Assembly: GCA_964454305.1 (NCBI GenBank)
Contig: CAYVXX010000001.1
Coordinates: 65,464-129,463, forward strand
From: an uncultured Syntrophales bacterium
GTDB taxonomy: Bacteria; Desulfobacterota; Syntrophia; Syntrophales; JADFWA01
Length of the DNA: 64,000 bases
Reading direction: 5' to 3'
Shown: piece by piece, positions 6,063 through 57,238 of the stretch
How positions within the stretch are numbered: position 1 is the stretch's first letter
Layout: each line of letters begins with the position of its first letter
Program-made: the position numbers and the translations under genes
The notes under the pieces: generated by a model
Databases searched by the model: none
The model's input: only the letters and a program-made list of their open reading frames with translations
What the model was told of the DNA's origin: nothing

Positions 6063-7373
6063 ATGAAAAAGGTAATTAACAGGACGAAATTTATTTTCGC
6101 GATACTAATATTCGCCGTAATGGTTCTTCCCGCAAGCACAGTCTTTTCAGCGGACAATAACCATAAGCAGATAACCCGGGAACTTATAAATTTAGTGGAG
6201 ACAAATCCGGAAATCAAAAACATGCTGGAATCATCCATCGCGGAAGCCCAAAAAATCAATCCCGACCCGAAGACGAATCCTGTTCAGAGCTTACCGGAAT
6301 ATTATGATTTCATAGACGAAGCATCGAAGCTCCTTCCTCAGGAGATAGTTGGAGGCCCAGCCGGTTCTGTACGTGACCAGATGCTGCAAGGTCTTTGTTA
6401 CTTCTATTTTCTTGTTGACCAGCCCCTGCCTGAATTAAAAGACAAAGGCCTGTTCAAAAATGCGCTTCAGTACTACCCGCCTTTTTCCTCCTGGCTTCGT
6501 AAATTTGCCAACGCCTGGGGAGAGTTCCTTGATACTGAAGAGTCATGGAATGAAGAGATTTACCGGCAGATTTATAACGACCCCAAATTCGGTTTGCAGG
6601 AAGGGTGGTATGAGCCCCCATCCAACTGGAAGACCTTCAATGATTTTTTCGCCAGATATTTAAAGTCGCCTGATGTGCGGCCCATTGCTTCGCCGGATGA
6701 TCCGGCCGTCGTTGTCCTGCCGGCCGATTCCGTTTCTCAAGGAGTATGGGCAATTGATGAAAATTCAAATATTCAAGTAGAGGGTGGATTAAAAGTCAAA
6801 CTCTTGACTTATTACAGCATCAGGGAGTTGCTTGGTGAGGACAGCCAGTACAGGGATGCATTTGCCAATGGCGTGCTCACTCATACCTTTCTGAACGTAA
6901 ATGACTACCACCGTTACCATTTTGCCGTTGGTGGAATCATTAAAGAAAAGAAGATCATATCGGAAAACGTTGCCTTGGAGGTGAACTGGGATCCGGAGCA
7001 GGGAAAATATGATCCCATTGACTCCACAGGCTGGCAGTTTTCCCAGACCCGTGGTTATGTGATAGTGGATACGGGAAAATACGGACTGGTGGCACTTATT
7101 CCCATGGGTATGGCCCAGGTGTCTTCTGTCAACTTTGAGGGTAATGTCAGGCCGGGAATCACTCATAAGAAAGGCGACATGCTCGGTAATTTCCTATTCG
7201 GGGGATCTGATTTCATTATGCTTTTCCAGAAAAAGGCCGGGTTTGAAATCACGGCAGCGACAGAAGATAAAGCAGTTACGAAATCCGGTCCCGGCCATGG
7301 AAGCGAAGTAACGACCTATAAACATGCTCTTATGGGCGAGGAGTACGGCGTAATGAAGGGACAGGCAAAATAG
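6063..7373 (+). CDS. Secreted phosphatidylserine-decarboxylase-family (pyruvoyl) decarboxylase, long form
   Basis: The N-terminal signal peptide is MKKVINRTKFIFAILIFAVMVLPASTVFSA. PSD motifs DYHRYHFAVGG and the FLFGGSDFIMLF G-S self-cleavage site are present. Confidence 0.75.
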   Translation: MKKVINRTKFIFAILIFAVMVLPASTVFSADNNHKQITRELINLVETNPEIKNMLESSIAEAQKINPDPKTNPVQSLPEYYDFIDEASKLLPQEIVGGPAGSVRDQMLQGLCYFYFLVDQPLPELKDKGLFKNALQYYPPFSSWLRKFANAWGEFLDTEESWNEEIYRQIYNDPKFGLQEGWYEPPSNWKTFNDFFARYLKSPDVRPIASPDDPAVVVLPADSVSQGVWAIDENSNIQVEGGLKVKLLTYYSIRELLGEDSQYRDAFANGVLTHTFLNVNDYHRYHFAVGGIIKEKKIISENVALEVNWDPEQGKYDPIDSTGWQFSQTRGYVIVDTGKYGLVALIPMGMAQVSSVNFEGNVRPGITHKKGDMLGNFLFGGSDFIMLFQKKAGFEITAATEDKAVTKSGPGHGSEVTTYKHALMGEEYGVMKGQAK

Positions 7374-28437: not shown

Positions 28438-29166
28438 TTGATTAAAATTAAAGGCGTGAGCCTGTGGTATGATAAAGGATTTAAAGCGCTTGATAATATC
28501 ACTGAAACAATACAAAGAGGCCAGACAGTCGTCATATGTGGCCCCAGTGGTTCAGGAAAAAGTTCACTGCTCAGGTGTATGAACGGCCTGGAGCGTTTCC
28601 AGGAAGGCGAGATTTTTGTCGATGGAGTATCCGTGCAGGATCCCGAAACAGATATCCATAAACTCCGCTCTGATATCGGTGTGGTATTCCAGCGTTTTGA
28701 GCTCTATCCTCACATGACAGCAATGCAGAATATAACCTTGGCGCCTATCCGGGTTCGTCACAAATCAAAAAGAGAGGCTGAGGAAAAGGCCATGGAGCTA
28801 CTCGAACGGGTGGAGATCCCGGAACAAGCTTTTAAATACCCGGAAGAACTTTCTGGAGGCCAGAAGCAGCGGGTAGCCATCGCCCGAGCCATGGCTATGG
28901 AACCCAAAACTATGCTTTTTGATGAGCCTACTTCGGCCCTGGACCCGGAAATGATTAAAGAGGTCCTCGATGTCATGATTAACCTGGCCAGGGAAGGAAT
29001 GACCATGGTTGTGGTAACTCATGAGATGGGATTTGCCAGGGAAGTGGCCAATGAGATCATCTTTATGGATGAGGGGAGGATCATTGAGCGGGGCGCTGAT
29101 CGCAGCTTTTTTGATAATCCGAAAAATGAAAGGACCCGTCAGTTCTTAAGTCGTATCTTGATATAG
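28438..29166 (+). CDS. Amino-acid ABC transporter ATP-binding protein
   Basis: Walker [10 protein letters not shown], signature LSGGQKQR, Walker [16 protein letters not shown] start at 28438 with RBS AAGGAG is preferred over the long ORF starting at 28312. Confidence 0.85.
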
Positions 29167-33202: not shown

Positions 33203-35788
33203 CTAACCCTTTACAACAATATTAACGAGCTTTTTAGGAACGTATATCTCTTTCACCACCTCTTTGCCAGCGATAAGTTTACTTATCCTATCATCAGAGA
33301 GCGCTTTTTCTTTTATTTTTTCGTCAGATTCAGCCGCGCTTACCATAATCCTGCTCCTCAGCTTTCCATTTATTTGCACGACTACTGTAATCTCCTCTTC
33401 CACAACAACCGCGTCATCATAGTCCGGCCAGGTAACATCGGAAAGTTTTTCACTTTTTCCAAGCATCTTCCAGAGCTCCTCCGTAATATGGGGAACAATC
33501 GGGGCAAGCAGGATAATTATATTTTCAACGGTTTCTCTTATGACGGAGAGAGCTTTAGCATCCGACCTATCAGGATGTTTTACCTGATACAGCGTATTGA
33601 CAAGCTCCATTACAGCACTTATGGCAGTATTGAAGTGAAATCTTTCTTCTATATCATTGGTTACCCTCTTTATTGTCTGGTGAGTCTTTCTTCTCAGGTT
33701 TTTAAGATCCCCTTCAAGCTCTTCCCTTCCGTCAAATGGCTCAACCTCTTTGATGTCATCAAGATACTCCATAACAACACGCCATACCCTGCCGAGAAAC
33801 CGGAACGATCCCTCCACTCCCTGGTCGTTCCACTCCAGATCTTTCTCGGGGGGTGCGGCAAAGAGGCAGAACAGCCTTGCGGTATCGGCACCATACTCCT
33901 CAATAAGATAATCGGGATCGATCACGTTCTTGAGAGACTTGGACATTTTCTCCGTCTTACCTATCGTCACCTCACACCCGCAGTGTACACATTCACCATC
34001 CTTTGCCTCGTCAGGGTAAAGGTACCCGTGTTCTTTACATCTCATGGTTTCCTTACATACCATGCCCTGAGTAAGGAGATTCGTAAATGGCTCATCTACT
34101 CCTAATATACCGAAATCCCTGAGCATCTTCGTGTAAAATCTTGCGTAAAGAAGGTGCATTATGGCATGTTCAATCCCACCGATATACTGATCCACAGGCA
34201 TCCAGTAATCTACCTTTTTCCTGTCAAGACCCGGATTATCTGAATAGCCCGCACAGCAAAATCTGTTAAAATACCATGAAGATTCCACGAAAGTATCCAT
34301 CGTATCGGTCTCTCTTTTTGCAACCCCCTTGCACCTTGGACACTCTGTTTCTACAAAGAACGTGTGGTTTGCCAGCGGGGATCCACCTTCGCTCTTAAGT
34401 TCCACGTCCTCTGGAAGAACCACGGGAAGGTCAAATTCAGGCACCGGTACAGTACCGCATTTTTCGCAGTAAATAACAGGAATTGGAGCTCCCCAGTATC
34501 TCTGCCTCGATATACCCCAGTCCCTCAAACGATATTCTACCGTTCTTTTTCCCCGGTCAATGGATTCCAAATAATCTGCTATTGCATCGAGGGCTTTCAT
34601 GTTCTCCATACCATCGAACTGATCTGAATTAACAAGGACCCCTTCATCAACGTACGCCTCGGTCATTGTTTCCACATCAAGCGGATTGTCCGGATTTTGA
34701 ATGACCACGATCATCGGAAGGCTGTATTTCTGAGCAAATTCAAAGTCTCTCTGGTCATGAGTCGGAACCGCCATAACACAACCGGTGCCATAGTCGGCAA
34801 GGACAAAGTTTGCGGCATAAATAGGCATTTTATTGTTGGTTACAGGATTAAGGCAGTAAGCATCCAGAAATATCCCTTCTTTCTCGTAATACTCGGATGT
34901 CCTTGTCATCATGTCTTGTTTCTTTACCTTTTCAACGAATTCCCTGACATCCTTCTCCACCGGTTTTCCCTCTACCAGTTCCATTACAAGGGGATGCTCA
35001 GGGGCAATCAACATGAAAGTGGCTCCGAAAAGAGTGTCTTGCCTGGTGGTAAAAACCTTTATCTCGCTATCTCCTTTCGCCATCGGAAAGGTTATTTCAA
35101 GCCCTTCGCTTTTACCTATCCAGTTTTTCTGCATGGTTAGAACTCTCTCGGGCCAGCCGGTAAGTTTGTCACAGTAATCGAGAAGTTCTTCTACATAAGA
35201 CGTTATACGGAAAAACCACTGTTCAAGATATTTTTCTTCAACCTCGGTACTGCATCTCCAGCAGAGCCCCGCTTCTACCTGCTCATTTGCCAGAACAGTC
35301 TTGCAACCACTACACCAGTTAATTGCTGATTCTTTTTTATAGACCAGGCCTTTCTCAAACATCCAGAGGAAGAATAGTTGCTCCCATCTGTAATACTCCG
35401 GATCGCAGGTTGACAGTTCCCTGTCCCAATCGTAGCTGAAACCCATCCTCTTGAGCTGCTTTTTCATGTTCGCGATGTTTTCGTTCGTCCACTCTAAAGG
35501 ATGAATCCCGCGTTCAATAGCGGCATTTTCCGCCGGCATACCAAAAGAATCCCAACCCATCGGATGCAGCACATTGTATCCCCTCATCATTTTATACCGT
35601 GCCACCACATCACCTATAGTATAGTTTCTCACGTGTCCCATGTGAATCCTGCCGGAGGGATATGGAAACATTTCCAGAAGGTAGTACTTCCTCTTATCGG
35701 GATCCTCTGTAACCTTAAAGGTTTTTTCTTCCTCCCACCGTTTTTGCCACTTTTCCTCAATCTCATGTGGTCTGTACTTCCTGTTCAT
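33203..35788 (-). CDS. leuS: Leucyl-tRNA synthetase
   Basis: [14 protein letters not shown] (HIGH region), KMSKSLKN (KMSKS region), 861 aa. Confidence 0.95.
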
Positions 35789-35909: not shown

Positions 35910-37100
35910 TTAAAGCGGGGGCAACCTGCCTTTAAAGGCAACTTTGAGAGACGAAGAAAAATCACATAGAAATTGTGAGAAAATATTAGCGAATCTCCGT
36001 AACAAGTTTAAAGAAGAAGGAGAAAAAGAAGGAAATATCTGGTTCATTATTTCATTCTTTGGAAAGATATTTTCTGTAATGAACTGAATTCTTTTCCCCC
36101 ATCCCCTTATCTGGAACAGCCATAAAATTTCCGTTGTTAATCCTAATGGAGCATTTGCTAATCGAAGCCTCAGGGTATATTTCTCAAAAGCTGAAAGATT
36201 ATTTTTTCCAAGAGCGTCCAGCACATAATCGGGAACATTCATTTCCAGAAGGTGTTTTGCAAGCAGTAAAAAATAGAGCAGATTTTTTTCAGCCCCAACC
36301 ATCCGGAAATGTCGTATCAGATCCAACCAATCAAATTTTTCGTTGTTTCTTTCAATAGATTCTTTAATATCAACAAACCAGATAAGTCGCCTTAATCCAT
36401 GCTTTAAAAGATGGGATGAGAGGGAAATAAGGTTATCGTACAATGAAAGCCGGAATAAAGAGGAATCATTATCCCTGATAGAAATCGCTCTTGTCCACAC
36501 ATCTTCATATTGAATATTCATTATTTCCCGGCGACTCCGTATTCGGTGCGTGGAGAGGAAATCAGTGTGCAGATCTATGGAAATGATGCCCCTTCTATAA
36601 GTATTCGGGTAAAGCTGATCCGGGTAAAAACCCATATCCTTCAGAATTTTCCTCACGTCATCCAGACTTTCCGGTTGAACCATAAGGTCAATATCCTCCA
36701 TGGGCCGAAGACCAATATCCGAATAAACCCGTTCCAGTAAGGCTGCACCCTTGAGGACAATTACCGGAAATTCATATTTTTTCAGGTGTTCCCCCAGCTC
36801 TTCAAGGACTTTTATCATGTGCCTATTTATGAGCAACGTTTCAGCATATATACGGGCTAACAACTTCCGGGAGGATTCGGGCAGGTTCGTTAAAATGCTG
36901 AGATTGCGGCAATGAAAATAAAGAAATGAAGTGAGTCCTTCCTCGAGGGCTTTATCTATAACGACAGGCCAGTCTATACTCTTTCTTATGTTTTCTTTGA
37001 GCCATGTAGCATCATCCCCGCTCAGTGTCTGCCGGGCTATGATTTTTAAGAGTTTATTTTCGATTTCTGACCCCATAGTGACACACGGCATAGCAGACAC
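35910..37100 (-). CDS. NTP_transf_5-type uncharacterised nucleotidyltransferase (last gene of the RiPP-like operon)
   Basis: The pattern LKGAALLERVYSDIGLRPMEDIDLMV...SIDLHTDF is typical of the nucleotidyltransferase family found next to HPr-kinase-like and PqqD genes (recalled). Confidence 0.65.
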   Translation of the reverse strand: MSAMPCVTMGSEIENKLLKIIARQTLSGDDATWLKENIRKSIDWPVVIDKALEEGLTSFLYFHCRNLSILTNLPESSRKLLARIYAETLLINRHMIKVLEELGEHLKKYEFPVIVLKGAALLERVYSDIGLRPMEDIDLMVQPESLDDVRKILKDMGFYPDQLYPNTYRRGIISIDLHTDFLSTHRIRSRREIMNIQYEDVWTRAISIRDNDSSLFRLSLYDNLISLSSHLLKHGLRRLIWFVDIKESIERNNEKFDWLDLIRHFRMVGAEKNLLYFLLLAKHLLEMNVPDYVLDALGKNNLSAFEKYTLRLRLANAPLGLTTEILWLFQIRGWGKRIQFITENIFPKNEIMNQIFPSFSPSSLNLLRRFANIFSQFLCDFSSSLKVAFKGRLPPL

Positions 37101-37106
37101 CGGTAT

Positions 37107-38465
37107 TTATGCCTTTGAAATTATCAGCACCCGGAAACTCTGTGGATTTACCGTTGCAGATGCCTTCGAAATATCAGCAAAACGAAGGCCGTGAATCCGA
37201 GCTAAAAACTCTTTTCCTACAGCTTTCCCCAGGCTCTCCTCCGTATAGGCAAGCTGGGATATACTCCTGTTGAAAAAAGGCAACAAATGCTCCTTCAGAG
37301 CAATGAAGGAAAGATAATCAAGGACCTTTTCATCCTCGTTAAATCCGAGAAAGTCCAGCATATTCGAAAATTCGGCATTAAAGCCCAGCGTTTTCGCAAC
37401 TTCAATCAGATGACCGAAGTGAATGGAAAATTCCGTATGGGCCCTGAGTTCAGAAGCATTTGGGTAAAGGTGAAGATCCCCATATTCGACAACAATGGCA
37501 TTTCCGTCAGAAGATAAGATTTCTTTTAATTTAGTAATGAAATTAAAAGCCCCTATGTTGACCAGAAAGTCTTCAAAGGCGTCTTCAAAATTCAAGTTGC
37601 ATCTCTTACAAAATGCCACCGTCTCCGCCAGAGATTCCGGCGGCTTTTCATCTGAAAAAAAATAGTTTTTTTTCAACTTTGCCACTCCGAGATCTGCTAT
37701 CATTTCATTGGAAATAACAAAATCAAAAACGGAATGACCAAATTTGTAATTTTCTATATTGCCCTCAATGAAAGAGGTTATTTTTTCATGGGATATATTT
37801 GTCTCTTTCTGAGACGAGAGTAAAACCGGGGAAAGATCAAAAAAAGTATAATGGATCGTGTCATAAATGTCCGGGCGTTTTTCCCTTAAATACGAGAGAA
37901 AAGCATTCCCGAAAAAACCTGTCCCTCCACCTACCTCCAGAATATTAGCACGGGCATTTATCAAGCCTTTTCTGCAGCATACCTCCGCAAATTTTGCACC
38001 ATAGCTTATTCCTCCCAGGGCAGGATGGGGAAAGCGATAAACATGGGAGAGGGTAATTTCCTCATCCTCAAATTGCTTCCCGGGATCTGTAATCCCTTCA
38101 CGGTGGTAATCGATAAGACTATGCTGATGCCGGGTCAGGCAAGCAGCTGATGAAAATTCCCGGAAAAGGGACAAAAACGGCTTTTTTGATTTACCCTCTT
38201 CTTTGCCATGTGAACTCTCCTTGATGATAATACCTTCATCCATCCACTTCAAAATCTTTTTAATCTTCTCATCATCCAGGACATTTGCATGTTTATTTTG
38301 ATAGATAAGAGAGAGAAGCTTAACGTCCTCAAGATTTGATAAAAGAAGTTTGCAAGCTCTTTCACTGCTTAGATTAAGGATCAGCAGTGGATCCCCTGTG
38401 AAGAAAAGTGTCCCATAATTTACTTTGATTTCTGATAAGTCACACGTTTTATCCATCCGAATCAC
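37107..38465 (-). CDS. Class I SAM-dependent methyltransferase-like protein (MidA/DUF185-like) with an N-terminal extension
   Basis: Motif I is ILEVGGGTGFFGNAF, followed by TFFDLSPVLL. 452 aa. It overlaps the upstream PqqD-like gene by 17 nt. Confidence 0.55.
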   Translation of the reverse strand: MIRMDKTCDLSEIKVNYGTLFFTGDPLLILNLSSERACKLLLSNLEDVKLLSLIYQNKHANVLDDEKIKKILKWMDEGIIIKESSHGKEEGKSKKPFLSLFREFSSAACLTRHQHSLIDYHREGITDPGKQFEDEEITLSHVYRFPHPALGGISYGAKFAEVCCRKGLINARANILEVGGGTGFFGNAFLSYLREKRPDIYDTIHYTFFDLSPVLLSSQKETNISHEKITSFIEGNIENYKFGHSVFDFVISNEMIADLGVAKLKKNYFFSDEKPPESLAETVAFCKRCNLNFEDAFEDFLVNIGAFNFITKLKEILSSDGNAIVVEYGDLHLYPNASELRAHTEFSIHFGHLIEVAKTLGFNAEFSNMLDFLGFNEDEKVLDYLSFIALKEHLLPFFNRSISQLAYTEESLGKAVGKEFLARIHGLRFADISKASATVNPQSFRVLIISKA

Positions 38466-38760
38466 TTGCCTTCACAACGACACCCTTGTCCTCCATATCT
38501 GACAGGAGATCACGTATATCACTTAACAGCCGTTCCCGATCTGTGTCATATATTGCCAGCAACTCCTCACCTATGTCATTTAATGTTTTCTTCCCGTCAA
38601 GTCTCTTCCAGACCTCCCGTCCCACCTCATTTAAAGTGTAATAAATGATCTTATTCTCAATATTTTTCATATTTGATGGAATTATAAGAAAGGTATCGTC
38701 CAGCTCTCTGAAGGCAAATTTGGGTGATCTTTTATACATTACAGATAATGAACGTTCCAT
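38449..38760 (-). CDS. PqqD-family peptide-binding protein (second RRE)
   Basis: FRELDDTFLIIP...YYTLNEVGREVWKRLDGKKTLNDIGEELLAIYDTDRERLLSDIRDLLSDMEDKGVV is the canonical PqqD pattern. Confidence 0.8.
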   Translation of the reverse strand: MERSLSVMYKRSPKFAFRELDDTFLIIPSNMKNIENKIIYYTLNEVGREVWKRLDGKKTLNDIGEELLAIYDTDRERLLSDIRDLLSDMEDKGVVVKASDSDG

Positions 38761-38833
38761 GACTAATCATTGCTGGCGGTTTCGTAAAAACAAGGTACGG
38801 GCGGGGATAACAAATGTGGGTAATTTTGATTTT

Positions 38834-39325
38834 TTACGATGCCGTAAAGCTTCTTGTATCCCGTATTTCTATCATACTTTGATGCCCGATAATAGTCACC
38901 TTTCCTGATCTGATTCCGGCAAATTCCTGTATTTTCCGGGGAATTAAGACGTGTCCATTATCCATTATTTCAACATTTTCCTCGTGTAAGAACGGCGTTT
39001 TTTTCTTGAAAAGCCTGGAGTTCTTTATCTTTTTAAACACCTTCATTTGAGGAGTGTCCCCAGGGATAAGGAGCACAAAACCATTGTTCTCCGGCGCCAC
39101 AACATGAAATTCATATTTTCTTAACGAAAATATGAATTCTTCGGGCATCAAAATCATGTCATCCATTATTTCTCCGGAATAAGAACCGGAAAAGTTGTAA
39201 TGCTGTATATCCGGGTAACTCGATGCCAGTGCATCTTTCCCTTTAAAACGAAAAAGTCTCTCAGGAAACCCGTAAATCACGGGTATGGCAAAAAGACCTA
39301 TCCTTATAAAATCCCTTCTCTTCAT
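38834..39325 (-). CDS. Hypothetical protein with Tat-like N-terminus and C-terminal AbrB/MraZ-like swapped-hairpin motif
   Basis: MKRRDFIRIGLFAIPV at the N-terminus. The C-terminus GHVLIPRKIQEFAGIRSGKVTIIGHQSMIEI resembles SpoVT/AbrB/MraZ. Weak assignment. Confidence 0.4.
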   Translation of the reverse strand: MKRRDFIRIGLFAIPVIYGFPERLFRFKGKDALASSYPDIQHYNFSGSYSGEIMDDMILMPEEFIFSLRKYEFHVVAPENNGFVLLIPGDTPQMKVFKKIKNSRLFKKKTPFLHEENVEIMDNGHVLIPRKIQEFAGIRSGKVTIIGHQSMIEIRDTRSFTAS

Positions 39326-39759
39326 AATAAATTCCCTCCTTCATTTTGGGAATTATGTAGATTCGCGAGTAGACATCTCCGACTGTCGTGATTCGTGATA
39401 TTTCCCCTTAAAAAGCGTTTTAAATATTCCTTAAACCTGGAGACAGTCCAGAAATACCACTCCCTTGACACACTAAAACGTATAAATTTTCCATTTCTTA
39501 TAATTCCTATTGCCTTTCCCTCAACGGAATTCATTTCCACTGACTCCGTTTTAAGGTTGTAACCGTCTCCCCTCAGGCACACAAAGTTGTCACCTATCTT
39601 CTTAACCAGTCTGTGGATGATATATCCCCCTTCTTTATCTTCGAATACGAGAAGATTGCCCTTCCTAAAACTTTCGAAAGGAAGTTCCCTTGCTACCACA
39701 AGATCATCCTCCCTTAAAAAGGGATACATGGAGTTTCCTTTAACCCTGTACAATCTCAT
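39322..39759 (-). CDS. S26-family signal-peptidase-like protease, Ser/His (SipW/Sec11) type
   Basis: GNSMYPFL supplies the nucleophile Ser box, IIHRLVKK has His where bacterial SPase I has Lys, and a RGDGYN box is present. Confidence 0.65.
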   Translation of the reverse strand: MRLYRVKGNSMYPFLREDDLVVARELPFESFRKGNLLVFEDKEGGYIIHRLVKKIGDNFVCLRGDGYNLKTESVEMNSVEGKAIGIIRNGKFIRFSVSREWYFWTVSRFKEYLKRFLRGNITNHDSRRCLLANLHNSQNEGGNLL

Positions 39760-40432
39760 TTAGCATCTCCCTGAAAAGAGAACTATCCCCACGAAGATCC
39801 TGCCCCCAGCATACCTCAAAGGCCGGATAATCGCACAGCTTTTCCAACAATCTTTTCTGTCTTTCCTGTTCCTTCCTGTTATATGACCATAAAAGCTGGG
39901 GCGTCAACCTCCTTAATAAATCTATCTTTTTTTTCGTTTTTTTAACAAAAGTTGGGCCGCTGATGGCGCTCGGAAAAAGGAAGTATTTCAGGATGGCCGG
40001 TTTAAACTGTTCAGGTTCGGGAACAATCGCCTCATCATTTAAAAAAATAGTGGAGTAAAAAGGGAGTATCTCAATGCCATTGGCGGATTCCTTCAACAGT
40101 GTAATATCATCACTCAAGAGGGAAAATCCATTCTTCATGGCAAGATAACTCATGGTCGATTTGCCGCAATCAGAGGGTCCTACGACAAGATGCCCTCCTT
40201 TAAAGTGAAATCCACCGGAATGTATTGCCCATATGCCTATTTCGGCAAGATACCGGTAAAAAAGCCCCCCTATTTCCTGGGCTACCTCTTCCTTTATGAA
40301 GTCAAGGTTTACCTCAACCTTTTCAACATGCTCTATTAAGAAGAATTTGAGCAGGCCGGCGACCTCTTCTTCATCGTTGCGGCTTATAAAGTTTACCCGC
40401 GCTCTTAATCCATAGATGTTAAAGTCAAGCAT
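39740..40432 (-). CDS. HPr-kinase/phosphorylase C-terminal-domain-like protein (RiPP kinase-like)
   Basis: The P-loop VVGPSDCGKSTMSYLAMKNGFSLLSDDITLL resembles the HprK core. Confidence 0.7.
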   Translation of the reverse strand: MLDFNIYGLRARVNFISRNDEEEVAGLLKFFLIEHVEKVEVNLDFIKEEVAQEIGGLFYRYLAEIGIWAIHSGGFHFKGGHLVVGPSDCGKSTMSYLAMKNGFSLLSDDITLLKESANGIEILPFYSTIFLNDEAIVPEPEQFKPAILKYFLFPSAISGPTFVKKTKKKIDLLRRLTPQLLWSYNRKEQERQKRLLEKLCDYPAFEVCWGQDLRGDSSLFREMLNEIVQG

Positions 40433-41442
40433 TGTGTCCAGGGTGAATCAGGATAGTCTTTTAGCCAGTCTAATTTGCCAAATTGATAAAAACACCAGTT
40501 GCATAAGGAAAGCGGCGCCTTCTTAATAGCATCTTTTCTTTCAAAGCGCCATTTAAGAACTTCCGGCAAATAATTGAGATGCCTTACAATGAGATCCTTC
40601 AGTGGAAATTCTTCAATGCCGCCCAGGCATTCCTTCCCTTTATAGCTCTCCTCTGTGGTTCCCACATTACTTAAGTTGTTGCAGAAGAGATAGTTCCCCA
40701 CCTCATCGACGCCGAATTTATAAAAGGCATTACAGGCAAAAAGGTCATTAGCTGTATTGAATGCCTCAAGTTTTAACCGGGGATATATCCGGCGCCAATC
40801 CGTAAGTTGCGTGAAAAGCCGGTATATCTCATCCGGATCCGGAATGAGTCCCTCCTCTATGAGCCTCTTTGTAGGCTGGATGAAGATAAATGACTGTGAA
40901 ACGGCCCCGAGGCCTGAAGTAAACAGGAGTATATCCCTCAATTCGTTCTTGTTTAAGTTTGTCACCGCTGTTTTTATATAAAAAGGTATTCCCAGCAGAC
41001 GACAGAGTCCTATAGCCTCTACCACCCTTCTGAAACCACCTTCCTTTCTGTTCCCGTCATGAACATCTTCTCTTGCGCTATCCAGGCTGAATCCTATCAG
41101 TTGAATCCGCTTCCTTATCAAAGGATTCCTAATTAAGGGGAATATTTTCTCTTTGAATAAATAACCGTTTGTAAGTATTTCAAAATCGATATTGTTTTCC
41201 GCCAGGCTTAAAAAGATACCCTCGAGCTGGGGGTGGAGTGATATTTCTCCCGACCCTGTAATACCCGCATATTTGAATCCCAGATATCGGAGCTCTCTCA
41301 TAAGATGAGAAAAAAGATCTTTGTCCATATACTCAGGCTTTGCGGACTTCTCCACAAGGCAGTGCCGGCATGAAAAATTGCAAAAATTGACAATATCAAT
41401 TGTAGGGGCTCTCATATTCTTTAATCCAGTCCATTTTATCAA
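40405..41442 (-). CDS. Radical SAM enzyme with C-terminal SPASM/twitch-like Cys motifs (paralog 2)
   Basis: CNFSCRHC, then ACNAFYKFGVDEVGNYLFCNNL and CNWCF. It is a paralog of the upstream gene. The usual GGEP is replaced by GSGEISLHP. Confidence 0.8.
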   Translation of the reverse strand: MIKWTGLKNMRAPTIDIVNFCNFSCRHCLVEKSAKPEYMDKDLFSHLMRELRYLGFKYAGITGSGEISLHPQLEGIFLSLAENNIDFEILTNGYLFKEKIFPLIRNPLIRKRIQLIGFSLDSAREDVHDGNRKEGGFRRVVEAIGLCRLLGIPFYIKTAVTNLNKNELRDILLFTSGLGAVSQSFIFIQPTKRLIEEGLIPDPDEIYRLFTQLTDWRRIYPRLKLEAFNTANDLFACNAFYKFGVDEVGNYLFCNNLSNVGTTEESYKGKECLGGIEEFPLKDLIVRHLNYLPEVLKWRFERKDAIKKAPLSLCNWCFYQFGKLDWLKDYPDSPWTQCLTLTSMD

Positions 41443-42379
41443 AAAGTTTAAAACATGCTACGCAGTTTCTTGTCTGATGCCCTTTGAGGTTTGAATCTAT
41501 TGTCTTTTCCATAAACCATGCAAAAGTCCGGTAATGTCTTATTATCCCCTCCTCAATGCCGATTTCTTTGATATTTCCAAGAAACTCCTTCCCGAATGTA
41601 TCCGTCCTGTCTCCTGCCGTCGGGTGAGAAAGGTTGCAGCAAAAAATAAAGTTTCCTTCATGGTCGATGGAAATTCCCTGGGCGGGGTTGCAGAAGGAAA
41701 CTTTGTAATCGGGATCAGCATACCCTTCGATATTGATTACCATGGAAAATGAAGGAATAATTCTACCCTTGATATACCTCGTGACATCCATGTATTCCTG
41801 AGGCGAGGGCATCAATTTTTCCGATATTAAACGCGGTGTCGGAGTTAGAAGGACAAACCCGAGGCTCCCGACACCCTTGGAGGCGCATAAACAGGCAACA
41901 TCGGTTATTTCTTTTACGTTCTCTCTATGAATAACACTTTTGACGGATACAGGAATGTACTCTCTTATACAGACATCGATGGCTTTAATTACTTTTTCAA
42001 AACTCCCCTCGTGCCTAAGCATGTCGTGGGAAGCGGACGTTGCGCCGTCAAGGCTGAAGCAGACGCCGGAAAAATACTCCCTCACTTCCGAATCAATAAG
42101 AGGAAGAATCCTTTCCTCAAAAAGAAACGCATTGCTTACCAGACTGAATCGCATCCCATATTCTTTTATGAGCCTGAAGATTTGCTTAAGATCCGGGTGA
42201 AGCGCCGGCTCGCCGCCTGTCAGACAGACTTCCCTTATGCCAACGGATGAAACCTCTCTCAGCATAAACTCCAGCAATTCAGTCTGTATATGCGCCTTGG
42301 GAAACAATTTATCCCTGAGGCAGTGGATACAATCAAAATTACAGTGATTAGTAATATCTATGGCAATATTGTTTATCAT
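41396..42379 (-). CDS. Radical SAM enzyme with C-terminal SPASM/twitch-like Cys motifs (paralog 1)
   Basis: CNFDCIHC, LTGGEPALHP, FCNPAQGISIDHEGNFIFCCNL and CVACF. Confidence 0.8.
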   Translation of the reverse strand: MINNIAIDITNHCNFDCIHCLRDKLFPKAHIQTELLEFMLREVSSVGIREVCLTGGEPALHPDLKQIFRLIKEYGMRFSLVSNAFLFEERILPLIDSEVREYFSGVCFSLDGATSASHDMLRHEGSFEKVIKAIDVCIREYIPVSVKSVIHRENVKEITDVACLCASKGVGSLGFVLLTPTPRLISEKLMPSPQEYMDVTRYIKGRIIPSFSMVINIEGYADPDYKVSFCNPAQGISIDHEGNFIFCCNLSHPTAGDRTDTFGKEFLGNIKEIGIEEGIIRHYRTFAWFMEKTIDSNLKGHQTRNCVACFKLFDKMDWIKEYESPYN

Positions 42380-42451
42380 TGAATGGTCTAATCAGATGGA
42401 TAGTAAGCCTTTTACAGCTGGATCAAGGCAAATTGCAACACCCGGCAGGCG

Positions 42452-42691
42452 TTAAGGACGCCTGCTGAATACACGGGAAAGGACGGTTTGTAGCGCAACA
42501 CTGGACCGAGTAATAATCTCCTGCGTCGCCTGTGAGGTCTGGCTGATGCTTTCAACAATAGTCTGTAACGCAACGCTGGTTTCCGTCGTAGCCTCTGCCA
42601 ACTGATATTGTGTGGTTGTTACCCATGCTCTCACGGTAAGGATCTGGGACTCTTCCCTTATTTCAGGCTTTATATATTTCTTTTTCCCCAT
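42452..42691 (-). CDS. Candidate 79-aa precursor peptide (Cys-free, Thr/Ser/Gln-rich, internally repeated)
   Basis: MGKKKYIKPEIREESQILTVRAWVTTTQYQLAEATTETSVALQTIVESISQTSQATQEIITRSSVALQTVLSRVFSRRP. A YxxPxI motif lies near the N-terminus, and TETSVALQTIVES is repeated as TRSSVALQTVLSR. The ORF sits between the RRE gene and the radical-SAM genes, with a hairpin at its stop codon (42446-42464). Confidence 0.55.
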   Translation of the reverse strand: MGKKKYIKPEIREESQILTVRAWVTTTQYQLAEATTETSVALQTIVESISQTSQATQEIITRSSVALQTVLSRVFSRRP

Positions 42692-42927
42692 GATATCGCC
42701 TTTTCTTCAAGTAGTTCCAAAAACTTTCGGATATCTTTTTCCACCTCATTTTCATCAACATCGTATTCCTTTGAAATAACGGCTTTTATTTCCTCTTCAC
42801 TCTTACCTTCCTTCGACATCTTATATATGAGAAGAGCCGTCTCATTCAAAAAATGGCTGGTACCTCTTTCTACATCTATAATCATGCCTTCCCCATCAAC
42901 TTCCGCCAGAATTACATCATCTTCCAT
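42670..42927 (-). CDS. PqqD-family RiPP recognition element protein (first gene of the operon)
   Basis: VILAEVDGEGMIIDVERGTSHFLNETALLIYKMSKEGKSEEEIKAVISKEYDVDENEVEKDIRKFLELLEEKAI is the canonical PqqD pattern. Confidence 0.8.
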   Translation of the reverse strand: MEDDVILAEVDGEGMIIDVERGTSHFLNETALLIYKMSKEGKSEEEIKAVISKEYDVDENEVEKDIRKFLELLEEKAISWGKRNI

Positions 42928-43142: not shown

Positions 43143-44594
43143 CTACTTCTTCCAGAATTCCGGGACCAGAAGTATAATAACGGTATAAATCTCAAGCCGT
43201 CCAACCAGCATACAGAACGACAGAACCCACTTTCCAATACAAGGAATTTCACTGTAAGTCGAAACAGGACCCACCATCCCGAATCCCGGCCCCACATTGC
43301 CGATAGTCGCCGCAACCGAGGAAAAGGCCGTCATCATATCCAACCCAAGTGAAGACATAATCAGGACAGCAACAACAGTCAACGAAAGGTACAGGAAGAA
43401 AAAACCCCAGATGCTCCCCATCACCTCTGAGGATACTGTGTTTTTCCCGAGTTTAACCGTAGCCACTGCATGAGGATGTATAAGCCTGTACAGTTCTTTA
43501 TAGCTGTGTTTTATTATAAGGAGTATTCTGAGACACTTTATGCTTCCACCAGTGGAACCTGCCGATCCCCCTATAAACATCAACAGAAGTAATATAATCT
43601 TGGAGAGTGCGGGCCAGTTGGCAAAGTTGTCTGTTGTATAACCTGTTGTGGTAAATATGGAAACCACCTGGAATGAGGCATAGCGGAAAGCTTTTGCCGT
43701 CTCGTCAAAGAGATTCATACGCAGATTCAGCGTTACTATAATTGTTGCAACAAGTGCAACTCCGAGAAAAAAGCGGAGTTCGCCGTTCTTAAAGAAGTCC
43801 TTAAAGTTTCCTGTCAGAAGGCTGTAATGAAGAGAGAAGTTGATTCCGGCCATCAGCATAAATACGGTAATCACAGCGTCTATGTATGCACTGTGGAACG
43901 AGGCTATACTGGCATCACTTGTAGAGAAGCCACCTGTAGCCATTGTTGTAAACGTATGACACATGGAATCAAAAACACTCATCCCTCCGAAAAGGAGCAG
44001 AATAAATTCAACTGTTGAGATAATAAAATAAACGATCCAGAGAGTCCTAGCCGTTTCTATAATACGCGGCTTAAGCTTGTCCTTTACCGGACTGGGGAGT
44101 TCCGCTTTATACAGTTGCATTCCACCTACTCCGAGGAACGGAAGAATGGTAATTGACAGTATAATAATACCCATGCCACCCAGCCACTGTGTGAAAGAAC
44201 GCCACATAAGTATCCCATGTGGAACGTCTGCTATACGTGTAATAACCGTTGCCCCGGTAGTTGTAAACCCGGACATCGATTCAAAAAACGCATCGGTAAA
44301 TGTAGGAAAGATCCCATGGATAAGGTAGGGAAGAGATCCGAAAGCCGCGGCAAGTATCCATCCGCCAGCTACTATTACAAAACCTTCTTTGTGGGTTAAC
44401 GATATCCTCTCCTCAAGCGGCCTGAAGATAAAATAAAAAAAAGCACCTGTGGCACAAGTAAGCACGAGGGATAAGATAAGGGCATTGAGGTCTCCTTCTC
44501 CGAAATAAACAGACCAGCCTATGGGAAGGAGCATGGCAAGACCAAAGTAGAAGAGGAATGCCCCTAAGATGTGGAAGATGTTCTCTATCTTCAT
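43143..44594 (-). CDS. trkH: Potassium uptake protein TrkH
   Basis: A 483-aa polytopic protein with repeated TTGAT/TTGYT/ATGGFS selectivity-filter-like motifs, adjacent to trkA. Confidence 0.85.
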   Translation of the reverse strand: MKIENIFHILGAFLFYFGLAMLLPIGWSVYFGEGDLNALILSLVLTCATGAFFYFIFRPLEERISLTHKEGFVIVAGGWILAAAFGSLPYLIHGIFPTFTDAFFESMSGFTTTGATVITRIADVPHGILMWRSFTQWLGGMGIIILSITILPFLGVGGMQLYKAELPSPVKDKLKPRIIETARTLWIVYFIISTVEFILLLFGGMSVFDSMCHTFTTMATGGFSTSDASIASFHSAYIDAVITVFMLMAGINFSLHYSLLTGNFKDFFKNGELRFFLGVALVATIIVTLNLRMNLFDETAKAFRYASFQVVSIFTTTGYTTDNFANWPALSKIILLLLMFIGGSAGSTGGSIKCLRILLIIKHSYKELYRLIHPHAVATVKLGKNTVSSEVMGSIWGFFFLYLSLTVVAVLIMSSLGLDMMTAFSSVAATIGNVGPGFGMVGPVSTYSEIPCIGKWVLSFCMLVGRLEIYTVIILLVPEFWKK

Positions 44595-57088: not shown

Positions 57089-57162
57089 TGGGGGATCGTC
57101 TATCGGTATGACTCGGGTCTCTCGAATCTGCTACTCGGGTTCGAATCTCGGTACCCCAGCCA
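57089..57162 (+). tRNA. Atypical tRNA-like gene: Gln-type body (UGGGG...ACCCCAGCCA) but anticodon loop CU-CUC-GA
   Basis: A hand-folded cloverleaf. The acceptor is TGGGGGA/TACCCCA with a G6-A67 mismatch. The D arm is GTC-N9-GAC. The anticodon stem is CGGGT/ATCTG (two G-U pairs) and the T arm is TCGGG-TTCGAAT-CTCGG (two G-U pairs). The anticodon-arm sequence resembles a copy of the T arm. Confidence 0.5.
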
Positions 57163-57163
57163 T

Positions 57164-57238
57164 GGTCCCATCGTCTAGGGGTTAGGACGCTGGCCTCTCA
57201 CGCCGGAAACAGGGGTTCAATTCCCCTTGGGACTACCA
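57164..57238 (+). tRNA. tRNA-Glu (anticodon CUC)
   Basis: GGTCCCATCGTCTAGGGGTTAGGACGCTGGCCTCTCACGCCGGAAACAGGGGTTCAATTCCCCTTGGGACTACCA is collinear with the canonical bacterial tRNA-Glu. The anticodon loop is CT-CTC-AC. Confidence 0.85.

Follow-up and report, generated by a model that had tools for sequence, protein, structure and literature searches.

Linear polyphosphorylated peptides (LPP) are made by the lppA-K-B-S-D-N cluster of Paenibacillus alginolyticus and its relatives, and have been reported as confined to Bacillota (Popov et al., Nat Commun 2026; PMC13381572). The core genes of LPP clusters encode the leader peptidase LppS, which resembles archaeal-type signal peptidases, the HprK-like kinase LppK, the NTP_transf_5 protein LppN, an MsbA-like exporter and LppB, a discrete recognition element (RRE) of the kind that guides enzymes to ribosomally made, chemically modified peptides (RiPPs). 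The precursors share the leader motif YxxPxVLxHQxIxFET/xxS (a slash marks cleavage here and below) and have a variable C-terminus; LppS depends on the RRE and cuts the precursor after T-1, and LppK polyphosphorylates Ser3 of the core (PMC13381572). In the domain table of that study the kinases are annotated as TIGR04249 (ScmC) or TIGR04352, and NTP_transf_5 is present in 140 cases. LPP clusters often lie inside capsular polysaccharide loci, as paeninodin clusters do; up-regulation of the lpp RRE gene coincided with that of an exopolysaccharide gene, and the authors raise a role in biofilms (PMC13381572). Here we describe ten genes from an uncultured Thermodesulfobacteriota bacterium, found within a 64-kb stretch of contig CAYVXX010000001.1 (the window), that probably constitute one operon for a RiPP. 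We favor, with moderate confidence, a reading in which this operon merges an LPP-type platform with a pair of radical S-adenosylmethionine (radical SAM) enzymes on a single precursor.

Two further groups of systems serve for comparison. The SynChlorMet (SCM) cassette is computationally defined and consists of ScmC, ScmD, ScmE and ScmF (TIGR04249-04251, TIGR04248; PF27840); full-text searches found no paper on SynChlorMet or on the HPr-rel-A systems. To our knowledge, going by its TIGRFAMs description, no precursor has been identified for the SCM cassette. In phosphorylated and glycosylated lasso peptide systems such as paeninodin and pseudomycoidin, the precursor has a YxxP or WxxP leader and the kinase phosphorylates a Ser hydroxyl of the linear precursor. 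PsmN of the pseudomycoidin system, annotated as an uncharacterised NTP transferase, is needed for addition of a hexose to the phospho-Ser.

The ten open reading frames (ORFs) occupy positions 35910-42927 between trkH (43143-44594) and leuS (33203-35788), all on the minus strand, and an ORF check of the window bore out these positions, which had been given in an earlier note made from the sequence. From 5' to 3' they are as follows.

42670..42927, minus strand: PqqD1, a discrete RRE of 85 aa (Pfam PqqD, E 8.9e-13).
42452..42691, minus strand: the precursor peptide, 79 aa (conserved leader, gene calls, synteny).
41396..42379, minus strand: rSAM1, a radical SAM protein of 327 aa with a twitch-like C-terminal Cys motif (Radical_SAM, E 2.3e-20).
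40405..41415, minus strand: rSAM2, 336 aa, a paralogue of rSAM1 (Radical_SAM, E 8.8e-17).
39740..40432, minus strand: an HPr-kinase/ScmC-like P-loop kinase, 230 aa (AlphaFold/Foldseek, hhalign).
39322..39759, minus strand: a SpI-like (archaeal-type signal peptidase I / S26B-like) Ser/His leader peptidase, 145 aa (LppS homology).
38834..39325, minus strand: p163, with a Tat-like (twin-arginine translocation) N-terminus and a MraZ-fold double AbrB-like domain, 163 aa (motif, AlphaFold/Foldseek).
38449..38760, minus strand: PqqD2, a second discrete RRE of 96-103 aa, accessory (PqqD, E 1.5e-16).
37107..38465, minus strand: a class I SAM-dependent methyltransferase-like tailoring enzyme, accessory, 452 aa (Methyltransf_28, E 8.4e-8).
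35910..37100, minus strand: an NTP_transf_5 nucleotidyltransferase-fold protein (LppN/PsmN-like), 396 aa (PF14907, E 5.2e-44).

Seven junctions between these genes show an overlap of 4-47 nt or a spacing of 6 nt, and the reading frames of rSAM2, the kinase and the peptidase overlap one another. Gaps of 72-73 nt separate the precursor from rSAM1 and p163 from PqqD2, so that the statement in the earlier note that all of the genes overlap or abut was slightly overstated. Promoter-like and terminator-like sites within the ten-gene block did not exceed their frequency in shuffled sequence. The domains assigned beforehand to both PqqD proteins, both Radical_SAM proteins, the NTP_transf_5 protein, the methyltransferase (Methyltransf_28) and the signal-peptidase-like protein were recovered with Pfam and NCBIfam; none of the ten proteins reached an NCBIfam equivalog cut-off in the Pfam, NCBIfam and PADLOC scans. 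Pfam annotation detected neither a lasso cyclase nor a B2 protease nor an exporter in the ten genes or in the 10-kb flanks on either side, as the earlier note had stated for the operon. Across the 64 kb of the window, a single ATP-binding cassette (ABC) match was obtained, to an ATPase domain only; it lies at 28441-29145, approximately 7 kb from the operon.

The 79-aa ORF carries much of the case for a peptide product. Contigs of identical sequence are present in several metagenomes, where independent gene callers also predict this ORF, and a Shine-Dalgarno-like AAGG lies 9-11 nt 5' of its start. The leader would comprise approximately residues 1-22 (MGKKKYIKPEIREESQILTVRA) and the core approximately residues 23-79, with TSVALQ-type repeats at residues 38, 52 and 63. 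Among 32 precursor sequences (that of the window and 31 homologues), the leader consensus Y-[IV]-[KR]-P-[ED]-I-R-E-E-S-x-I-L-T-V-R-A-W-V-T is nearly invariant, and the motif residues Y, P, L13, T14, A17 and T20 are identical in all 32. The core is 38-74 aa long, or 160 aa in one variant, with a Ser plus Thr content of 20-35%, and contains 1-4 copies of an 11-residue unit, h-T-x-[TS]-[SN]-[VY]-[AS]-[LV]-Q-x-h, at a spacing of 11 or 14 residues. This combination of a fixed leader with a variable core is a signature of RiPPs and counts against a cofactor precursor. Cys is absent from every one of the 32 precursors, which excludes thioether chemistry of the sacti-, ranthi- and SCIFF-type, as had been argued from the window precursor. 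Judged by its sequence and its relatives, the 79-aa ORF is a genuine RiPP precursor. The family is a rare one, since a HMMER search of 1.84 billion representative proteins recovered only 16 relatives. Two genomes (L009 and L013; labels of this form, L001-L088, denote the related loci and genomes used in comparisons) each carry two precursor copies, and no further copy was seen in the window. A variant in L011 (343-912) and L012 encodes a precursor form of 189 aa with a long Pro/Thr/Arg-rich C-terminal tail.

We also considered a GC-rich 8-bp hairpin, GCAGGCGU...ACGCCUGC, at 42443-42470 on the minus strand, which spans the precursor stop codon. It is common to the window and L001, is not conserved at the other loci, and has a folding z-score of -0.7, which is not significant relative to shuffled sequences; it was dropped as a feature. 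Even so, the hairpin could increase the amount of precursor mRNA in the window lineage.

Conservation of the 79-aa ORF beside the enzymes had been set as a test beforehand. Homologous loci were identified by a scan of one genome per species followed by tblastn, and the ORF accompanies the enzymes in 16 further genomes (L001-L015 and L019), at identities of 50-80% and in the gene order PqqD1-precursor-rSAM1-rSAM2-kinase-peptidase-(p163)-NTP_transf_5. The full enzyme set is present in 10 of the 13 loci with sufficiently long contigs, the rest of the 16 being cut by contig ends or missing members; the eight genes of the core (RRE, precursor, rSAM1, rSAM2, kinase, peptidase, MraZ-fold protein and NTP_transf_5) are collinear in these 10. 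The host assemblies are mostly Syntrophales or Desulfobacteraceae; the closest named relative, L001, is a Thermodesulfobacteriota metagenome assembly with approximately 90% identity and the same trkA-trkH-cluster-leuS synteny. At every complete locus the PqqD1 gene lies immediately 5' of the precursor gene. Both radical SAM enzymes are integral to the operon and present in every related locus, and within the cluster conservation is highest for rSAM2 (57-94% identity across loci). The NTP_transf_5 gene was found at 10 related loci and p163 at nine. PqqD2 is limited to the lineage of the window, L001 and L008, the last of which has the second RRE without the methyltransferase; the methyltransferase, whose Methyltransf_28 match is above the gathering score, is limited to the window lineage and L001. 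The conserved leader, variable core and syntenic enzymes sustain the earlier classification of the operon as RiPP-type.

The RRE, the kinase, the Ser/His peptidase and the NTP_transf_5 protein of the window are each detectably homologous to LppB, LppK, LppS and LppN, respectively, the Lpp sequences having been taken from the supplement of PMC13381572. PqqD1 matches LppB by BLASTP (E 5e-6), with N28 and D65 aligned to N33 and D70, the LppB residues that hold the Pro kink and the Tyr of the leader (PMC13381572). Its best NCBIfam matches are the lasso PqqD chaperones. PqqD2 also matches LppB (E 4e-8) and has N44 and D81 at the Tyr/Pro-binding positions. The peptidase aligns with LppS over residues 6-129 (124 residues, E 4e-14), which places S10 and H49 on the catalytic S29 and H68; its best NCBIfam match is TIGR02228 at 34.4 bits, below the cut-off of 51.85. 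In a family alignment that includes three SpI sequences from the LPP paper, the GNSMYP, HR and GD motifs are conserved, and the window enzyme lacks an N-terminal membrane anchor, indicating a soluble protein. The NTP_transf_5 protein matches LppN over 228 residues (BLASTP, E 3e-9), with LKG...EDIDL aligned to PKG...SDIDL, and gave no match among the PDB sequences.

The relationship of the kinase was apparent at the level of structure and of profiles. No significant sequence match was obtained with Pfam or NCBIfam (TIGR04352, E 0.004), and comparison of the kinase and of p163 with the PDB by single sequence or profile was almost uninformative. AlphaFold predictions, run with database homologues, gave a kinase model with a predicted local distance difference test score (pLDDT) of 93, for which the top PDB matches by Foldseek were HPr kinase/phosphatase and PEPCK (E approximately 1e-6), in keeping with the HPr-kinase-like fold proposed earlier. 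Two kinase motifs, GPSDCGKST (Walker A) and SDD, are invariant. When profiles were compared by hhalign, the kinase matched the ScmC domain at 92.6% probability and LppK at 79.7% (E 1.5e-5); the match to ScmC agrees with the ScmC annotation of kinases in the LPP table. These four homologies to Lpp proteins indicate that the half of the operon without the radical SAM enzymes is an LPP-type set.

The precursor resembles those of LPP in part. The window leader has in common with the LPP leader Y, P, an [IV] residue at position 6 and an I at position 12 (Y-x-x-P-x-[VI]), whereas H-Q and F-E-T of the LPP motif are replaced by E-S and T-V-R-A. The end of the window leader, ILTVRA/WVT, has the same -1 to +3 spacing as IxFET/xxS of the LPP precursors, with a conserved hydroxyl residue three positions after the small residue at the predicted cleavage site. 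In this geometry a cut at A22/W-V-T25 matches the T/A-Q-S3 of LPP, and T25 is invariant. Both systems lack a macrolactam cyclase and combine a conserved precursor N-terminus with a variable C-terminus. The window differs from the LPP clusters in several respects. Two radical SAM genes, none of which has been reported for LPP, lie between precursor and kinase; the window and most of its relatives lack the MsbA-type exporter and have instead the Tat-signal MraZ-fold protein; the window core is an ordered 11-residue T/S-V-A-L-Q repeat, whereas the two LppA cores that were compared are Gly/Asn/Pro-rich; and the hosts belong to the Thermodesulfobacteriota, while relatives occur in Chloroflexota and Acidobacteriota.

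The earlier note had likened the accessory genes to those of lasso clusters, and the RRE, HprK-like kinase and NTP transferase of the window are indeed those of phosphorylated and glycosylated lasso peptides (PadeK/PsmK, PsmN). Unlike lasso clusters, however, the window has no Asn-synthetase-like cyclase (C) and no transglutaminase-like B2 protein, all ten ORFs belonging to other families; its leader is predicted to be removed by a serine peptidase; radical SAM enzymes are present; and the phosphorylation site of lasso peptides, a C-terminal Ser, is not conserved in the window family.

The two radical SAM enzymes are paralogues (33% identity, E 6e-58). The CX3CX2C motif of rSAM1 is found at residues 13-20, and C230, C247, C248, C306 and C309 are retained in 15 of 15 orthologues. 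In rSAM2, C21, C25, C28, C237, C254, C314 and C317 are retained in 10 of 10 orthologues and C272 in 9 of 10. The sole conserved Cys pattern in the C-terminal half of both proteins is CX11GX4C(C)...CX2C. The motifs of SPASM and twitch domains are those described for anSME and BtrN; the seven-Cys SPASM motif CX9-15GX4C...CX2CX5CX3C...C is absent from both enzymes, and the Pfam SPASM model gave E 0.054 for rSAM1 and no match for rSAM2. The Cys pattern of both enzymes is thus twitch-like, of the kind expected for a single auxiliary cluster, rather than that of a full SPASM domain, and the earlier designation of them as SPASM proteins has to be replaced by a twitch-like or partial pattern. The likelier start of rSAM2 is the ATG at 41415 (336 aa), as chosen by independent gene callers; its longest ORF begins at the TTG at 41442. 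For rSAM1, automatic gene callers start at an internal TTG, giving a protein of 303 aa (L081:8126-9037) that has lost the CX3CX2C motif. Homologues back the reading of 327 aa, and several rSAM1 homologues of 290-300 aa in the databases are apparently truncated in the same manner.

Matches of the pair to described families are weak and concern mainly the radical SAM core. The best NCBIfam match of rSAM1 is ScmE at 94.5 bits, followed by ScmF at 72.6, and rSAM2 gave 60.1 bits with ScmF and 54 with ScmE, against a cut-off of 400 in each case and in the N-terminal half only. The nearest solved structures are BlsE, SkfB, PqqE, MoaA and YydG, with the match again confined to the N-terminal half or core; YydG and HxsC are among the weak matches. 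The architecture of PqqD, two paralogous PqqE-like radical SAM enzymes and an HPr-kinase-like P-loop protein mirrors that of the SCM cassette, and the two overlap in their taxa (Syntrophobacter-type Deltaproteobacteria). The window proteins nevertheless score far below the SCM cut-offs (17 and 33 versus 100 bits for ScmD), the kinase has no ScmC match at E <= 0.1 (cut-off 125 bits) and is related to it remotely, at the profile level only, and the window has in addition the NTP_transf_5 protein, the MraZ-fold protein and a clear precursor. A further likeness is to multi-site radical SAM RiPPs with repeated core motifs and paired maturases (the His-Xaa-Ser system HxsB/HxsC, rotapeptides, epipeptides/YydG), in which RRE-guided SPASM/twitch-type enzymes act on Cys-free or repeat cores; the window meets no cut-off of these families and its repeat motif differs. 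The chemistry of this group includes the Thr-Gln ethers of rotapeptides and epimerisation.

Radical SAM relatives with 34-39% identity occur in minimal two-gene units in which the upstream ORF, of approximately 150-200 aa, consists of a PqqD-like domain and a C-terminal tail (L088:5522-6990 and L062:9516-10966, and also L017-L037 upstream of the radical SAM match). In L062 and L088 this tail (AKKITYTRPIMEVEGEHFHKIGAVVTGRVSSAVRQ...) is similar to the leader of the window precursor followed by a single repeat, and tails in Desulfobaccales end in another conserved motif, Y-x-LDF-x-VN-x-x-G-x4-K-x-P. These ORFs look like fusions of an RRE with a precursor, and their position beside these radical SAM relatives supports a peptide-directed enzyme family.

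Full-text literature searches recovered no description of clusters that combine radical SAM, HprK and NTP_transf_5 genes, and the term "radical SAM" is not mentioned in the main text of the LPP paper or in the portion of its supplement text that was examined (PMC13381572). The earlier note had recognized no described class in this combination. That view has to be given up for the set of RRE, HprK-like kinase, SpI-like peptidase and NTP_transf_5 protein without a cyclase, which is the LPP set (PMC13381572), and the SCM cassette is a parallel; it stands for the combination with two radical SAM enzymes, which is in no paper searched. Within the searched literature, the proposed merger of an LPP-type and a radical SAM set on one precursor, the repeat core and the replacement of the MsbA exporter by a Tat-signal MraZ-fold protein appear to be new.

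On the reading that we favor, biosynthesis would begin with binding of PqqD1 to the YIKPEI part of the leader. The radical SAM pair, held by the leader, would act on the Cys-free core, each 11-residue repeat most likely receiving one modification, with a C-C or ether cross-link or an epimerisation as candidate chemistries. The kinase would phosphorylate a hydroxyl near the leader/core junction, for which Thr25 is the best candidate by analogy with LppK and Ser3, and the NTP_transf_5 protein may extend or cap the phosphate, as its family homologue of the pseudomycoidin system suggests. In the window lineage (window and L001) only, PqqD2 and the methyltransferase may add a tailoring step. The soluble SpI-like peptidase would remove the RRE-presented leader at or beside the invariant V-x-A22/W23 site, and the product would probably leave the cytoplasm and act at the cell surface, perhaps linked to exopolysaccharide. 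The gene content, the homologies, the folds assigned, the conservation of the precursor and the synteny are results of the analysis; the order of these steps, the modified residues, the cleavage site, the export and the biological role are all predictions.

A location outside the cytoplasm is suggested by three observations. The first concerns p163, for which a Tat-signal and an AbrB-like fold had both been proposed and are both upheld. Its N-terminus, M-x-RRDF[IL]K, does not vary among nine orthologues and is a canonical twin-arginine motif. Residues 41-160 are modeled by AlphaFold at a mean pLDDT of 86 (10-residue blocks), this folded domain matches full-length MraZ by Foldseek (E 5.5e-7, template modeling score 0.5-0.66), and the profile matches PhS018 (PDB 2glw). 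Second, in the Spirochaetia-binned L015 an ABC exporter (ABC_membrane+ABC_tran) and a PRMT-like methyltransferase replace p163 and the NTP_transf_5 protein; this is the only variant with an ABC exporter, and its methyltransferase differs from that of the window and occupies an analogous place. Third, in six genomes (L003, L004, L006/L086, L010, L085 and L087) the cluster has as neighbors an HD-GYP (HD_5) gene and a Wza-Wzc-Wzy_C locus (Wza, Poly_export; Wzc, GNVR/AAA_31), placed upstream in divergent orientation or, following an inversion, downstream. Clusters of the window family thus often adjoin polysaccharide export genes, matching the capsular polysaccharide context of LPP clusters. The exporter of L015, the Tat-type signal of p163 and the polysaccharide neighbors together suggest an extracytoplasmic, possibly matrix-related role. 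Downstream of the cluster in L011 and L012 there are a convergent ABC-2 transporter and a gene for an NPCBM_assoc/CARDB protein.

The polysaccharide genes raise the possibility that the modified peptide is not a diffusible product but a part or a regulator of the capsule or biofilm matrix, with the phosphate (or phospho-sugar) as the link to the polysaccharide. The six genomes with their two arrangements favor this explanation, as do the placement of LPP and paeninodin clusters in capsular loci, the biofilm role raised for LPP and the joint up-regulation of the RRE and an exopolysaccharide gene. Yet exopolysaccharide genes are missing from the vicinity of the cluster in the window, in L001 and at several further loci, and only related Syntrophales-like lineages show the association, which could reflect an inherited neighborhood. 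We regard this explanation as rather unlikely, and it concerns the role of the peptide, not its biosynthesis, so that it is compatible with the merged pathway described above. A more elaborate proposal would make the cluster a distinct RiPP class in which the radical SAM pair modifies each repeat (by Thr/Ser-Gln ethers, C-C cross-links or patterned epimerisation) and the same peptide is phosphorylated and phospho-glycosylated or nucleotidylated, exported, for want of a transporter, by a Tat hitchhiker mechanism via p163, and active with the exopolysaccharide machinery. Taken as a whole, this proposal is speculative and unlikely.

Several points weigh against a single merged pathway. The role of each radical SAM enzyme, and the action of both on this peptide, are putative. 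LppK does not accept Thr at position 3 (PMC13381572), which makes Thr25 a guess as the site of phosphorylation, and the LPP spacing from Tyr to the cleavage site, when applied to the window, predicts a cut after R21, not A22. The reaction proposed for the NTP_transf_5 protein is tentative, and the LPP NTP-transferase was inactive in a heterologous system (PMC13381572). Neither an exporter in the window nor exopolysaccharide genes in its 64 kb were found. The expression of the cluster is presumed, and all of the relatives are metagenome-assembled genomes. Finally, L011 and L012 have rSAM1, rSAM2 and the peptidase and are missing the kinase and the NTP_transf_5 protein, and L015 is without the NTP_transf_5 protein; these losses indicate that the two enzyme sets are separable.

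The same losses bear on an alternative in which the operon holds two independent modules, an SCM-like cassette (PqqD1, precursor, rSAM1 and rSAM2) that makes a peptide, and a kinase, peptidase and NTP_transf_5 protein that serve another substrate, for example a different peptide or an exopolysaccharide-linked acceptor. That LPP clusters function without radical SAM enzymes, and that the window carries a second RRE, would fit such a division. However, the second RRE is missing from most loci, and each locus has one type of precursor, with an LPP-type YxxP leader and an invariant A-W-V-T junction that fits the peptidase and the kinase. The gene order, with overlapping rSAM2-kinase-peptidase frames, is fixed across at least 10 genomes, and the peptidase stays beside the radical SAM enzymes even where the kinase has been lost. 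We therefore consider two separate modules unlikely.

A pathway to a peptide-derived redox cofactor of the PQQ or mycofactocin type, an analogy drawn in the earlier note, is a much weaker explanation. It draws on the combination of RRE, radical SAM enzyme, peptidase and transferase with no transporter in the window, and on the presence of the mycofactocin and PqqE radical SAM models among the weak matches, but these are far below the cut-offs (49 versus 381 bits for PqqE, 62 versus 265 bits for MftC). Core sequence and repeat number vary widely while the leader is fixed. The cofactor precursors PqqA and MftA show the opposite pattern, with a conserved core. No partner dehydrogenases lie in the 10-kb flanks, L015 has an ABC exporter, the operon encodes a Tat-signal protein, and the family is rare and patchy (16 precursor representatives in 1.84 billion proteins). 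With the variable cores, the exporter of L015 and the six exopolysaccharide-adjacent genomes set against it, a cofactor role is very improbable. Least probable of all, to the point of being negligible, is anti-phage defense by viperin-like radical SAM enzymes together with a kinase and a nucleotidyltransferase, for although the PADLOC pVip models match the radical SAM core domains (E 1e-17 and 2e-11), these matches span only the generic core (NCBIfam prokaryotic viperin, 55 versus 180 bits), no other operon protein matches a PADLOC defense model, and the RREs and the conserved leader-core peptide indicate a peptide substrate.

Beyond the 16 loci, related radical SAM genes occur in looser combinations with HprK-like, NTP_transf_5, PqqD and/or S24-like genes in other phyla, the hosts including Dehalococcoidia (L016), Chloroflexota (L035), Pyrinomonadaceae and other Acidobacteriota (L038 and others), Nitrospiraceae (L044) and a gammaproteobacterium (L049). 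The window-type leader motif is missing from the distant loci L016-L080, which indicates that these clusters use other precursors, and small ORFs that are candidate precursors with other YxxP leaders are present in related Chloroflexota and Nitrospiraceae loci. Near the radical SAM, PqqD and NTP_transf_5 genes of the Nitrospiraceae locus are two tandem ORFs of 50 aa (L044:6426-6578 and 6739-6891; MKE..KKPYAEPKVLATYG...GCGCGGGS), with a YxxPxV leader and a Cys/Gly-rich C-terminus; they probably represent another RiPP, of the thioether type, that uses a related platform. On a Syntrophales-like contig, a second RiPP-like cassette lies directly upstream of the cluster (L085:56-7260) and comprises a 70-aa ORF, a radical SAM-ScmC fusion (PF27840; TIGR04249 at 47.7 bits, below the cut-off), a radical SAM protein, a PqqD protein, an S24-like peptidase, a third radical SAM protein and an ABC exporter. 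S24-like peptidases thus also accompany ScmC-type cassettes.

Otherwise the window around the operon holds housekeeping genes (riboflavin synthesis, nusB, trkA/trkH, leuS, lptE and rpsT), which marks the cluster as an insertion in a conserved core-genome neighborhood; its GC content is slightly lower than that of its surroundings (0.405-0.424 versus approximately 0.44). The sole Rfam matches in the window are two adjacent tRNA genes at 57089-57235 on the plus strand.

LPP were described only in 2026, and the same platform is now found in anaerobic Thermodesulfobacteriota, beyond the Bacillota. The cluster links LPP to SynChlorMet-type cassettes through a common HprK/ScmC-like protein and an S24-like peptidase, and it supplies a clear precursor whose core has a simple repeat, which in the searched literature has been described for no such radical SAM cassette. 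It thereby offers a compact, testable system for radical SAM chemistry on a Cys-free Thr/Ser/Val/Gln repeat, for the function of NTP_transf_5 proteins and for the association of such clusters with polysaccharide genes.

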